From assembly GCA_002306085.1 (NCBI GenBank), contig DBRS01000008.1, positions 1-51,399 on the forward strand: a stretch of DNA of 51,399 nucleotides, read 5' to 3'. The translations under genes and the position numbers were made by a program. The notes below the pieces were generated by a model. That model ran no database searches. It worked only from the letters and a program-made list of their open reading frames with translations, and had not been told where the DNA came from. Of the stretch, positions 16,657 through 20,723 are shown in pieces (position 1 is the first letter of the stretch; each line of letters opens with the position of its first letter). The stretch comes from Candidatus Moranbacteria bacterium UBA1362 (lineage in GTDB: Bacteria; Patescibacteriota; Minisyncoccia; Moranbacterales; GWC2-37-73).

Positions 16657-18966
16657 TTATTTTGCAATGATTTTTCCTCCCTGCCCCACCTGGTCAAGAC
16701 GCACCGACAAAAGCTTTGAAATTCCGTCTTCGCTCATGGTTACTCCATAAAGGAGTGAGGCTTGGCGCATTGTTTCACGGTTATGCGTAATCGCCACAAA
16801 CTGAGTTGATGCTGAAAGCTCCTGAAGAATCTTTCCAAAACGTCTGGAATTAGCTTCATCGAGAGCAGCTTCCACTTCGTCAAGGATCGCGAACGGCGGA
16901 GGATTATATGAAATTATGGCAAACAGCAAGGCAATGGCAGTCAAAGATCTCTCTCCTCCGGAAAGAACGGCCAGACTTGAAATTTTCTTTCCCGGGGGAC
17001 AGGCAAAAACATCCACTCCCATCTCCTCTTTTTCATCAGTGCCTTCTTCTGTCTGTTCCTCAATATTGCCCTCATTCAGGTCGTCTTCTTTTGCCTTATT
17101 CTTTTCTTTTTTTGTTTTAGATTTTATCAAACGCGCGTTTCCGCCACCGAAAATAATTTTGAAATATTTTGCAAATTCTTTGTCAATTTCCGCAAAAGCC
17201 TTTTCAAATTCGGTTTTGATGCGCGCATCCATTTCTTTTATCACCGTACCGAGAGATATTATTGCATTTTGCAAATCCTTGAGCTCCTGAGTAAGAAAAT
17301 CAAACCTTGCGGACGTTTCATTATATTCTTCCACAATCATCGGGTCTATGCCGCCTATGTGCTCAAGCTGCATTTTAAGCTTGTTTATTTCTTTTTCAAT
17401 GGCATCCCTGTCAATTCCGGTATCCACTTTTTCATTTTTAAGTTGCGACGGCTCGCATTTAAGCTCACTGCGGATCTCGTTGGACAAATCTTCTTCACGA
17501 ACTTCTATTCTTGCAAGTTTTATTTTTGCCTCATTGAATTGATCTTTCAGGACAGACAATTGCTCCTGCTTTACTCTTGATTCCCTCTCCAGTTCAAAGA
17601 AACGCTCTCTTGTTTTTTTCACCCTTTCCGTCTCTGCAGCCATTTCTTTTTCAATCTTCTCAATTTCAACTCTCAACTGCTTCTCACGGGATTGCAAATC
17701 CTTTTTCTTTTCCTCAAACTCCTCTATCTTTTTCAATATTAACGCAGTTTCTTTGGAATTGTCTTTTTTAATCGAAATTTCGCCTTTGCCGGATTCTCTG
17801 TGCAGATCGTGAAGCTGCTGCTGAATGGCTCTGGCATGCTCCTTTATTTCTTGGAGATCTTCCAGCTTCTCAACGCTCTCGATTCTTTTTATGAGCCTTT
17901 CCTGCGCTTCGCGAATATTCTTCAATTTATCCTGAACATATTTTAAATCTACAGGTATTGTTTCAATCAATTTTTGGTTTGCAAGCTTTTCTTTCTCAAT
18001 AATAACGCGTCCTTCGGAAATTATCAACTCCCTCTCAACTTCGTTCAACTTTTTTTGCAGCTGACCCTTTTTGTTTTCAAGCTCCTGTTGAAATTTCGAA
18101 TCTTGGAAACTTTTCGATTCCCGGCCAAGCTCATCGTTCATCTTATCAACCTCGCGCTGCATGTTCATCATCGATGCGCCAAGAGTTTCCTTCTGGCGGG
18201 AAAATTGCTGTCTTTCCGACTGGAATTGATTCCAGAGAAATGAAAATAATTTTATCTGTTTTTCTTTTAATTTTTCCGCGATGTCTTTCCCCTGCACCGC
18301 CTTTTCGGCTTGCCGCTTGAGCATCCTAAGATGCGGCTGGATTTCACGAATAAGTTCCTCCACGCGCTCCATGTTTTCTTTGGTCGACTCCATTTTTCTC
18401 TGAGCTCTTGCTTTCTTTATCTGATATTGCTTAACTCCCGCGGCATCTTCAATGATCGTACGCCTGTCATAAATAGACGCGTTCAAGAACGCGTCTGACA
18501 TTCCCTGATTGATGACCGAGTAGCTTTCTTTGCCGACACCCGCTTTGGCAAGCAAATCAATCACGTCAATAAGCCGCACTTTACTGCCATTTATCAGATA
18601 TTCGGATTCTCCCGAGCGGAAAACTTTTCTGGCAATCGCAACTTCCGAAAAATCCAGCGGTATCCTTTTATCAGAATTGTCGAAATGCAAAACTACGCTC
18701 GCGCTTGAGAGCCTCGCTTTACTGCCGCTTCCGGCAAAAATTATATCTTCGGATTTCCTTCCGCGCAGATTTTTCATGGACTGCTCCCCCATCGCCCATT
18801 TGATTGCGTCGGCAACATTGGATTTTCCACTGCCATTGGGACCGACAATAGCAGTAATTCCTTTCGCTTCTTTGCCACTGCCAAAATTACCCGCCGGAAG
18901 AAACTCCAGTACGGCCTTATTTGCAAACGATTTGAATCCCATTATTTCAACTTTTTTGAGATACAT
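16657..18966 (-). CDS. smc: SMC-family ATPase, short (about 770 aa), no recognisable hinge
   Basis: GFKSFA, Walker A GPNGSGKS, signature LSGGE, Walker B/D-loop ILDEVEAALD; start placed at ATG 18966. Confidence 0.88.
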   Translation of the reverse strand: MYLKKVEIMGFKSFANKAVLEFLPAGNFGSGKEAKGITAIVGPNGSGKSNVADAIKWAMGEQSMKNLRGRKSEDIIFAGSGSKARLSSASVVLHFDNSDKRIPLDFSEVAIARKVFRSGESEYLINGSKVRLIDVIDLLAKAGVGKESYSVINQGMSDAFLNASIYDRRTIIEDAAGVKQYQIKKARAQRKMESTKENMERVEELIREIQPHLRMLKRQAEKAVQGKDIAEKLKEKQIKLFSFLWNQFQSERQQFSRQKETLGASMMNMQREVDKMNDELGRESKSFQDSKFQQELENKKGQLQKKLNEVERELIISEGRVIIEKEKLANQKLIETIPVDLKYVQDKLKNIREAQERLIKRIESVEKLEDLQEIKEHARAIQQQLHDLHRESGKGEISIKKDNSKETALILKKIEEFEEKKKDLQSREKQLRVEIEKIEKEMAAETERVKKTRERFFELERESRVKQEQLSVLKDQFNEAKIKLARIEVREEDLSNEIRSELKCEPSQLKNEKVDTGIDRDAIEKEINKLKMQLEHIGGIDPMIVEEYNETSARFDFLTQELKDLQNAIISLGTVIKEMDARIKTEFEKAFAEIDKEFAKYFKIIFGGGNARLIKSKTKKEKNKAKEDDLNEGNIEEQTEEGTDEKEEMGVDVFACPPGKKISSLAVLSGGERSLTAIALLFAIISYNPPPFAILDEVEAALDEANSRRFGKILQELSASTQFVAITHNRETMRQASLLYGVTMSEDGISKLLSVRLDQVGQGGKIIAK

Positions 18967-19065
18967 AAGAAAATAAGATACAAACAAAATCGCAAAACCA
19001 ACCCGAACGGTTTTCGCTCTTCATCTTAACTTTATACCTTCATATTTTACCATGTTTTTGAATAT

Positions 19066-19357
19066 AAAAAAAGCCCTGGGATTGGGCATTAAAAAACATG
19101 TTTAGCGTTCACGATGCGATGCATGATTGCGTTCCGATATTATGGAATTAAGAATATATCGGGAGCAAAGGCGGGGATACAACCCAATTCACTTTGCTCC
19201 CATAGTGATCAGGGCTGTATTGAAGACCGCATGAGATAGTTTTTGGCTATCACAGAATCGCCAGCAATGAGTATAGCTACTGTCCGCCTAGACTTTCGAC
19301 CCTATGCCGGCAGTCCTCTTCACAAGCCTTTGATCCATCGAAAGAACTGGGGAAATT
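19066..19357 (-). ncRNA. Candidate structured non-coding RNA (about 290 nt), family unidentified
   Basis: Upstream TTGATA-17-TAAACT promoter (19364-19392), multiple nested stems, and a GCCC/GGGC hairpin with U7 at 19066-19087. Confidence 0.45.
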
Positions 19358-19517
19358 AAATATAGTTTAACGCGTAAAATTAAATTTATCAATAAAAAAG
19401 CCGACTATAAAAAGAAAAAGCGCCTACATTGAGGAGCCTGTGGTGAAATAAGTTCACTGTTTTATGAAATGTGCTTTTTTAGTTTAGCAAACTTACTTAC
19501 ATTTGCGCAGCTACTTT

Positions 19518-19623
19518 TGTCAAAAATGGTGGCTCGGAGAGCAGGAAGTTTTATGTTTTCGATGAAACACTCCCTGCCCTCCGACCGGTGTAACGGATAA
19601 CTATCCAAGAGGAGCTTCGGCTG
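19518..19623 (-). ncRNA. Candidate small RNA (about 100 nt), family unidentified
   Basis: TTGACA-16-(TG)TATAAC promoter (19629-19656); 18-bp stem with G-U pairs only on the minus strand, then a U5 tract. Confidence 0.45.
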
Positions 19624-19730
19624 ATTTAGTTATATCATAATAATTAATTTTGTCAAATTTAAAATCACCAAAAACTTGCTTTTCGAAAAAGCGCATGTTT
19701 TTTAGTGTTTAAGCAATATTTTTAAAATTT

Positions 19731-20723
19731 TTATTTCGAAATATATTCCGCCATTTCCACCAGTCTGTTCGAGTATCCCCATTCGTTGTCATACCATCCG
19801 ACAATTTTTACAAGATTTCCCTGGGACATCGTGAGCGGAAGATCAACAATAGCGCTCAAAGGGTTCATCTTATAGTCCATTGAGACGAGTTTTTCTTCAG
19901 TTGCGCCCAAAATATTCTTGAGACTTTCTTTTGAAGCCTCTATGAATGCTTCGTTGATTTCCTCAACCGTCTTGGAGCTTTGCACAGTGCAAATAAAATC
20001 AACGATTGAAACCACTGGAGTCGGAACGCGAAATGCAATTCCGTCCAGTTTTTCTTCAAGATGCGGAATTACTTTGCCAACGGTTTTTGCCGCTCCAGTC
20101 GTCGTCGGAATGATGCTGAGCGCAGCTGAACGGGCTCTGCGCATATCCTTATGTGGAAGATCAAGAAGATTTTGATCATTTGTATAGGAATGAGTTGTCG
20201 TCATAAAACCTTTCTCCACTCCGCAGAGATCATCCAGAACTTTTATCATTGGGGCAAGACAATTCGTCGTACACGATCCGTTTGATATTATCTGCTCACC
20301 CTTATATTCTTTCTCGTTTACTCCGAGAAGATAGACCGGCGTGCCATCTTTTGGAGGAGCGCTCAAGACAACTTTTTTCGCGCCTGCCATAATGTGCTTT
20401 TCTGATGATTTTTTGTCAAGAAAGACACCGGTACACTCAAGGACGACGTCCACACCCATTTCTCCCCACGGCAGCTGCAACGGGTCTTTTTCGGAAAAAT
20501 ATTTAATGCTTTTTCCGTCTACGATGATTTCACTGTTTTCCTTGTCGACAGTCACATTTCGGTGATACACGCCATAGGAAGAATCATATTTCAAAAGATG
20601 CGCCATCGTTTCGATATCGGTAAGATCGTTTATTGCGACGACATCCATGTTGCGCTTTTCAAAAATAATCTTGAGAGATGGACGACCAATCCGGCCAAAC
20701 CCGTTAATCGCTATTTTTAGCAT
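19731..20723 (-). CDS. gap: Type I glyceraldehyde-3-phosphate dehydrogenase
   Basis: INGFGRIGR, SCTTNCLAP and WYDNEWGYS. Confidence 0.98.
   Translation of the reverse strand: MLKIAINGFGRIGRPSLKIIFEKRNMDVVAINDLTDIETMAHLLKYDSSYGVYHRNVTVDKENSEIIVDGKSIKYFSEKDPLQLPWGEMGVDVVLECTGVFLDKKSSEKHIMAGAKKVVLSAPPKDGTPVYLLGVNEKEYKGEQIISNGSCTTNCLAPMIKVLDDLCGVEKGFMTTTHSYTNDQNLLDLPHKDMRRARSAALSIIPTTTGAAKTVGKVIPHLEEKLDGIAFRVPTPVVSIVDFICTVQSSKTVEEINEAFIEASKESLKNILGATEEKLVSMDYKMNPLSAIVDLPLTMSQGNLVKIVGWYDNEWGYSNRLVEMAEYISK

Follow-up and report, generated by a model that had tools for sequence, protein, structure and literature searches.

RsaE and RoxS are 'UCCC-motif' small RNAs (sRNAs) of Bacillota, about 100 nucleotides (nt) in length, in which C-rich words pair with ribosome-binding sites. 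Small RNA genes can also stand in tandem as paralogs, as do OmrA/OmrB in E. coli and PrrF1/PrrF2 in Pseudomonas. To our knowledge, RNA-based regulation is almost unexplored in the candidate phyla radiation (CPR)/Patescibacteria, and a literature search brought up no work on small or non-coding RNAs of Moranbacteria and none on 6S RNA or signal recognition particle (SRP) RNA in CPR bacteria. Herein, a candidate non-coding RNA of about 290 nt, termed RNA-B, is described from Candidatus Moranbacteria bacterium UBA1362. The DNA analysed (the window, 51,399 nt) is contig 1 of a 911-kb assembly (G000) of 24 contigs with a completeness rated at 96%. RNA-B runs on the minus strand from 19357 to 19066, in the spacer between the glyceraldehyde-3-phosphate dehydrogenase gene (gap) and smc. 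All named relatives of the Smc protein encoded in the window belong to Candidatus Moranbacteria.

Comparison with related genomes points, at about even confidence, to RNA-B as a stand-alone, lineage-specific small non-coding RNA gene and the downstream member of a tandem pair, whose upstream partner is termed RNA-A. Judged from sequence comparison, the gap-smc site appears to hold a fast-evolving modular RNA unit across the Moranbacteria family, and what is conserved among relatives is a scaffold with short single-stranded words, not the large domain. It is somewhat probable that a promoter designated P2 drives RNA-B as a separate transcription unit, which ends at the U-runs between 19096 and 19066. 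A stand-alone non-coding RNA had been one suggestion of an earlier note made from the letters of this stretch, and it is now the best-supported reading: the layout recurs across the family, and a model built from relatives picks out one of the hairpins of RNA-B (hairpin C).

RNA-B resembles RsaE/RoxS in having a promoter, a Rho-independent terminator, no open reading frame (ORF) and several C-rich words, predicted to be unpaired, that could pair with G-rich ribosome-binding sites; its location next to central-metabolism genes (gap, hydrogenase) can be listed as a further likeness. It differs in its length of about 290 nt, its large multibranch domain and its phylum, and the RsaE/RoxS family model (RF01820) has no match in positions 18900-19800 at E <= 10. 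In addition, the C-rich word of RNA-B varies in sequence and position among relatives. The pair RNA-A/RNA-B is comparable to OmrA/OmrB and PrrF1/PrrF2 in that its members are adjacent, lie on the same strand and each have a promoter and a terminator. As in tandem paralogous sRNAs, their ends are related (5' motif, hairpin and terminator) and their middles have diverged. There is no sequence relation to the described pairs, and RNA-A and RNA-B are far more diverged from each other. The parts of RNA-B and its surroundings are as follows.

19731-20723, minus strand: gap, the 5' neighbour of the spacer
18967-19730, minus strand: gap-smc spacer, 764 nt, with no ORF longer than 48 amino acids (aa)
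19364-19392, minus strand: promoter P2 of RNA-B, TTGATA (19392-19387), 17 nt, TAAACT (19369-19364)
19341-19357, minus strand: unpaired 5' tail, AAUUUCCCC followed by the motif AGUUCUUU (19348-19341)
19207-19335, minus strand: long-range stem P1 (19335-19310 with 19230-19207) and three-way junction, present in the minimum free energy (MFE) and centroid folds; species-specific
19161-19201, minus strand: hairpin C, a perfect 10-bp stem of GGGAGCAAAG (19201-19192) and CUUUGCUCCC (19170-19161) with a 21-nt apical part
19091-19160, minus strand: 3' tail, with stem-loop CCGAUAU/AUAUCGG, loop UUCUUAAUUCCAUA, a degenerate copy of the family terminator and U6 (19096-19091)
19066-19087, minus strand: candidate terminator, GCCC-AAUCCCA-GGGC followed by U7
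19044-19074, minus strand: smc promoter, with extended -10 element TGGTAAAAT (19052-19044), between RNA-B and smc
16657-18966, minus strand: smc, the 3' neighbour of the spacer

The multibranch domain, the perfect 10-bp stem and the terminator before smc had all been proposed earlier, and all were located on the minus strand; the ORF-free gap, put at 0.75 kb, measures 764 nt with a largest ORF of at most 48 aa. Within RNA-B itself, ORFs do not exceed 26 aa, have no Shine-Dalgarno sequence and are not conserved. The two tiny frames already reported, of 16 aa (start 19338) and 11 aa (start 19124), are both present and both without a Shine-Dalgarno sequence.

An argument for a functional unit comes from the layout of related loci (labelled L with a number). 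Gap-smc synteny is retained in 20 of 29 family loci, with spacers of 200-1300 nt. When five closer metagenomic relatives are added to the family spacers, at least 18 of 34 loci carry a modular unit at the equivalent position. This unit opens with the gap terminator and a near-consensus TTGACA-17-TATAAT promoter, at the place that P2 occupies in the window, and (A/U)AGUUCUU lies 10-31 nt further on; AGTTCTT at that distance from a consensus promoter was found in at least 12 related loci. There follows a long-range stem that encloses unrelated sequence (20-260 nt), then an AU-rich linker and a long hairpin, whose purine-rich 5' arm (GGGAG.., GGGAGGAG.., CAGGAGCG.., GGAGGGAU..) is matched by a pyrimidine-run 3' arm. 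The unit closes with a G-poor, C/A-rich linker, a terminator and the smc promoter. RNA-B carries all of these modules in the same order, and it occupies the same position, between gap and smc, on their strand and upstream of the smc promoter. Its AGTTCTT (19348-19342) begins 15 nt past TAAACT, within the roughly 30 nt that separate promoter and (A/U)AGUUCUU in the proposed family, and the 5' tail carrying it has an unpaired probability of 0.98-0.99.

Hairpin C was examined with a covariance model. Since alignments of the 3' module made with MAFFT were too poor for a family model, a two-sequence model was built from the hairpins of L060 and L061 only, and the whole window was scanned on both strands (102,798 positions) with no filters. 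The best match was hairpin C (19208-19149, 14.6 bits, E ~0.09), followed by the hairpin of RNA-A (19592-19527, 14.4 bits). Both fall in the 764-nt spacer, on the minus strand, and the third match scored 10.4 bits. With its GGRAG.. / ..CUYCC base just 5' of the terminator region, hairpin C thus agrees with the proposed family at a borderline E-value. With this model, the pre-terminator hairpin was also recovered from eight more loci (L050, L045, L035, L042, L062, L037, L030 and L033). Of the 199 cells in the alignment of 12 hairpins fitted to the model, 192 hold canonical pairs, and most positions show three to five pair types, with examples such as GGGAGC/GCUCCC, GGGGGC/GCCCCC and CAGGAGC/GCUCCUG.

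The 3' end carries further family traits. The 3' tail of RNA-B is alignable with L018 and L050, and its segment UUAAUUCCAUAAU is similar to AAUUUCCAAAG of L042 and AUUUUCCACAAAG of L037. Relatives have strong terminators of 8-10 bp before smc, which in one clade take the form GACAUCU..AGAUGUY-U5CU4. The hairpin of the terminator that precedes the smc promoter keeps its sequence (AAAGACAUCU..AGAUGUUCUUUUUCUUUU) from genus to genus (L037, L038, L042, L050, L051, L060-L062), and such cross-genus conservation is unusual for a mere terminator. A pattern search of 121 genomes from the order showed the conserved terminator word to be locus-specific and not a repeat. Downstream of RNA-B, the smc promoter belongs to a 32-nt stretch that is 88-91% identical in five relatives; the copy in genome G002, the nearest GTDB relative, lies about 70 nt upstream of smc.

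RNA-B is read as the second unit of a tandem pair, whose first unit, RNA-A, corresponds to the stretch read separately at 19518-19656. RNA-A comprises the following features.

19405-19656, minus strand: RNA-A, the upstream tandem partner, with the RNA itself extending from about 19622 to 19409
19656-19629, minus strand: RNA-A promoter, TTGACA (19656-19651), 16 nt, TGA-TATAAC (19637-19629)
19586-19531, minus strand: RNA-A hairpin, 18 bp, -31.7 kcal/mol
19439-19409, minus strand: RNA-A terminator, AGGCUCCU/AGGCGCUU with a U-run

The promoter of RNA-A, its first bases (AAAUCAG..AUAGUU) and its stem (GGUCGGAGGGCA.. / ..UGCUCUCCGA) have alignable counterparts in L050, which has a single unit. Its terminator contains 18 nt, TCAATGTAGGCGCTTTTT, that are identical in the terminator of L018, in genome G002. 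RNA-B in turn shares the 3' arm of hairpin C and the flank of that arm (CUCCCGAU..AAU) with L018. Furthermore, an independent tandem duplication of hairpin C and terminator was found in L042. The simplest history suggested by these alignments would be that a single ancestral unit was duplicated in tandem and that divergent loss came afterwards.

Fold statistics single out hairpin C (-22.1 kcal/mol, z = -4.3) as the sole strongly non-random piece. The fold of the whole RNA-B reaches -84.2 kcal/mol on the minus strand (z = -2.15), with 3 of 100 shuffles as good, against z = -1.13 for the plus strand. The multibranch domain (19335-19207) behaves likewise, with -41.8 kcal/mol and z = -1.9 on the minus strand versus -34.5 kcal/mol and z = -0.8 on the plus strand. 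It is closed by P1, in which GAUCA..GGCU..GUG..GAGGACUGC (19335-19310) pairs with GCGGUCUUC..UAC..AGCC..UGAUC (19230-19207). Among its 44 pairs, 9 are G-U and would become A-C on the plus strand, so that the minus strand is backed structurally too. The earlier impression that some stems pair slightly better on the plus strand is therefore not borne out by the fold, where only the terminator hairpin, taken alone, is slightly better on that strand. The 4 bp of the terminator give -6.7 kcal/mol (z = -5.2), and the UCCC of its loop is fully unpaired. As to the proposed alternative stem, CCGAUAU (19162-19156) / AUAUCGG (19140-19134) is indeed present, but it is weak (-3.2 kcal/mol) and has only 2 nt in common with hairpin C, which does not make a real switch.

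Several observations weigh against RNA-B as a stand-alone sRNA gene. The E-values of the hairpin model are borderline (~0.1) and roughly calibrated, and its pair counts come from a structure-fitted alignment of individually stable hairpins, which biases them toward structure. The z-score of the multibranch domain is modest, and the domain has no homolog anywhere searched. It was not alignable even in the closest other species (L050, L051 and L060-L062, with Smc 74-77% identical), and blastn of RNA-B against 61 relatives returned only a 32-nt AT-rich stretch (19074-19043), which is the smc promoter. Within the species, 11 contigs from different samples and sources, two of which begin inside the spacer, are 100% identical over the part of the spacer that they cover. 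A twelfth is 98.6% identical, and the neighbouring gene calls of its assembly look fragmented. The next Smc outside the species, in a search of a 5.8-billion-protein collection, is 77% identical, so that the pairing in the multibranch domain is that of a predicted fold. The signals for transcription that had been claimed are both there, on the minus strand, but taken alone they are weak. P2 matches the consensus at 9 of 12 positions, and four such sites occur in 900 nt versus 2.2 +/- 1.2 in shuffled sequence; the 4-bp terminator was missed by the terminator scan, falling below its 5-pair rule.

These same points feed the most serious rival, namely that the spacer is non-functional, a decaying duplicate of the neighbouring RNA unit (or of a small-peptide unit like those of relatives) whose remaining signals are leftovers or chance. 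This is unlikely in our judgement, although it would account for promoter-like sites being as frequent in shuffles, for a weak terminator, for a P1 domain that is unique to the species and only about 2 standard deviations better than shuffles, and for an ancestral terminator that is degenerate in RNA-B. The spacers of relatives, moreover, range over 200-1300 nt and differ in content, including short ORFs with a Shine-Dalgarno sequence (MKRRQPV..., L019 and L026). Decay fits less well with the retention of the module order, of the 5' motif and of hairpin C together with its 3' flank, with 764 nt being kept by a 0.9-Mb genome under reduction, or with the 9 G-U pairs on one strand. A second U-run terminator follows directly after the degenerate one, as is expected if termination is still selected. 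In 29 family loci and in its own genome, blastn and tblastx with the whole spacer as query returned no homolog, repeat or protein remnant; a longer ORF remnant had been named earlier as a possible refutation.

It is quite improbable, but conceivable, that RNA-A and RNA-B form one transcript of about 560 nt from the promoter at 19656-19629, with the U-runs as pauses or partial stops and P2 irrelevant. The upstream promoter is of strong consensus and P2 is weak, the stem of the RNA-A terminator is mismatched (-6.2 kcal/mol), and L050, L051 and L060 have a single promoter for the unit, from the 5' stem through hairpin C. The window resembles such a unit with about 330 nt inserted between stem and hairpin C. 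Two separate units are favoured by the end of RNA-A, an 8-bp stem followed by U5CU5 in which 18 nt are identical to the functional-looking terminator of L018, and by a further, hairpin-less U6 after it. The recurrence of AGUUCUU right past P2 is likewise what a second start would be expected to show.

Two proposals of the earlier note fare worse. An attenuator or leader of smc would require transcripts from P2 to pass the weak terminator, and the structure to tune smc in cis. In its favour, RNA-B and smc share a strand, with 100 nt between the end of RNA-B and the start codon; the terminator has only 4 bp; and smc has no Shine-Dalgarno sequence before its ATG (18966) and a structured 5' untranslated region (UTR). 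The proposal is improbable in view of the conserved extended -10 promoter that intervenes between terminator and smc (19052-19044) and of the strong 8-10-bp terminators in relatives. The alternative stems barely overlap each other, by 2 nt, neither overlaps the terminator, and no pairing that could act as an antiterminator was seen. A divergent 6S RNA, or a housekeeping RNA of another kind, is less probable still, indeed very improbable. RNA-B is non-coding, runs from promoter to terminator and spans a few hundred nt, as 6S RNA does, and the 6S model (RF00013) locates no 6S RNA elsewhere: it had no match in the window (gathering score), in 18900-19800 (E <= 10) or in the whole genome. What speaks against this identity, besides that null result, is the predicted shape, which in both MFE and centroid folds is a three-way junction followed by separate hairpins and not a rod with a central bubble, and the lack of sequence conservation even between genera of one family. 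The other housekeeping RNAs are accounted for elsewhere (RNase P RNA, transfer-messenger RNA (tmRNA)) or excluded through the absence of Ffh and FtsY (SRP RNA). On the RF00013 result and the multibranched fold, a divergent 6S RNA is not supported.

If RNA-B is a stand-alone sRNA, it may act in trans, its unpaired C-rich words pairing with G-rich ribosome-binding sites of mRNAs. This proposal is tentative and rather doubtful, and it is put first by analogy with RsaE/RoxS and similar sRNAs, which base-pair through C-rich motifs; a protein-binding RNA is one alternative. The putative pairing words would be UUUCCCC (5' tail), AAUUCCA (one of the loops) and AAUCCCA (loop of the terminator), with the long stems serving as stabilising scaffolds. 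Hairpin C resembles a Shine-Dalgarno sequence paired to an anti-Shine-Dalgarno sequence, and smc would start from its own promoter, separate from RNA-B. UCCC occurs four times in RNA-B versus 1.0 expected (p ~0.012), with two copies fully unpaired, one partly unpaired and one paired; the enrichment is marginal, and the motif was picked after inspection of the sequence. In a hand count over the 12 aligned hairpins, the 7 nt after hairpin C are about 49% C and 2% G, but the linker of RNA-B is the least C-rich of the set.

A broader and more speculative scheme, which we consider unlikely, would make the gap-smc spacer a birth-and-death locus of tandem sRNAs built on one scaffold, with RNA-A and RNA-B as its current copies. 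The scaffold would consist of a GUUCUU 5' tail, a stem resembling paired Shine-Dalgarno and anti-Shine-Dalgarno sequences, and a C-rich single strand. Its products would be translational regulators similar to RsaE/RoxS in ultra-small CPR bacteria, and in some genera the unit would have a dual function by also carrying tiny peptide genes. Apart from this scheme, should the gap-smc locus prove real, stand-alone sRNA genes are retained, duplicated and quickly remodelled at one chromosomal position even in a genome of 0.9 Mb, and RNA-A/RNA-B offer a concrete candidate pair for the metatranscriptomes of digesters and sewage, where the species recurs. Taken alone, RNA-B would be an orphan sRNA, of value mainly as a further documented unclassified RNA of Moranbacteria.

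The search for described families covered both the window and its relatives. No Rfam family falls on RNA-B even at E <= 10 (18900-19800 scanned), and none was found in 15 related loci, in line with the earlier statement that no riboswitch, RNase P, tmRNA or SRP signature was recognised. With E < 1 the spacer has a single match, to a viral pseudoknot model of 27 nt, on the strand opposite to RNA-B; at 24 bits against a gathering score of 39 it is taken as chance. A search for a phage origin gave no match. At gathering scores, the whole window contains a single Rfam match, a tRNA, and ARAGORN reports no tRNA or tmRNA in the spacer. RNase P RNA and tmRNA were located on other contigs, at C18:37072-37488 (181 bits) and C9:17011-17419 (122 bits), respectively.

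SRP RNA was considered and rejected as an identity for RNA-B. The SRP RNA models (RF00169, RF01854) have no match in the genome or in 33 family genomes, a regular-expression search for the helix-8 motif of SRP RNA gave an ORF start as its sole result, and no Ffh M domain or SRP54-type GTPase was detected in the genome. Since neither Ffh nor FtsY was found in the genome, RNA-B cannot be SRP RNA. As a separate observation, G000, whose assembly has only 524 N, yields no PF02978 (Ffh M domain) and no PF00448 (Ffh/FtsY GTPase), and the motifs DTAGR and TKxDGxxKGG are absent from all of its open frames. In 33 family genomes PF00448 gives only P-loop-sized matches of 18-22 bits, and none of the 91 genomes sampled from the phylum yields it; SecY is present in 41 of 41. 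On these searches G000 appears to have no SRP system, a result that needs an independent check; the literature searched for SRP in CPR bacteria neither confirms nor contradicts it.

Some observations concern the gap-smc region of relatives. Their smc genes have a long, repeat-built, hairpin-forming 5' UTR with repeats of the CAUAAAGU type. In L019, L026, L032, L036, L038 and L042, the unit after gap contains short ORFs of 12-45 aa with strong ribosome-binding sites, and the MKRRQPV... ORF is conserved between two genomes of one genus (L019 and L026); no similar short ORF with a good ribosome-binding site occurs in the spacer studied here. The first unit of other genera serves as a leader to short ORFs of this type, which have good ribosome-binding sites. 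The short ORFs of relatives may be small secreted peptides or parts of dual-function RNAs. As regards the species itself, the contigs L047-L049 and L053-L059, from Logan, JGI, ENA and NCBI samples, have identical spacers over the part covered, which points to a very clonal and widely distributed population. Sources of the contigs of this species include SRR23983920, JGI 3300010365 and 3300025737, SRR5182962 and ERR6175457.

The 5' motif also occurs outside the spacer. AGTTCTT is found in the RNase P RNA leader, in a non-coding RNA upstream of yraN and in some mRNA leaders of the genome, and genome-wide it is not enriched downstream of promoters (2 versus 1.8 expected). The related word GUUCUUU stands 5-30 nt past strong promoters of several unrelated transcripts, among them the RNase P RNA leader, the yraN-upstream RNA and some mRNA leaders, at 7 of 366 promoter-like sites versus 2.7 expected, a weak excess. 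The sites are C18 ~37504 (the RNase P leader), C3 78098, C1 ~24260, C19 75931, C20 34527 and 36506, and 19348-19341 of the window; GUUCUUU could be a shared 5'-leader signal.

The large non-coding RNA upstream of yraN (UPF0102) lies on the minus strand of G000 at C3 from about 78118 to 77450 (L075, 1625 to 950). It is similar to RNA-B in several respects, namely GUUCUUU near the 5' end, C-rich unpaired loops, the lack of an Rfam family and a common genome, and AGUUCUUUC..AUCAAAGGCUU of RNA-B is similar to the start of its second half. A profile of its unit-2 5' module gives a low score of 6.1 bits on RNA-B (19349-19325), with E 0.012 in the spacer and 0.74 across smc spacers, and is not reported at E <= 10 genome-wide. 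The two differ in conservation: RNA-B is without a sequence homolog, but blastn detects the yraN-upstream RNA, at 75-97% identity, in 33 of 33 genomes of the family. The yraN-upstream RNA contains a hairpin with an invariant loop (AAUUUCCCCCUAUUU), covarying stems and the invariant segment AAAACAAAAACAAAAA, and its second half has long-range helices.

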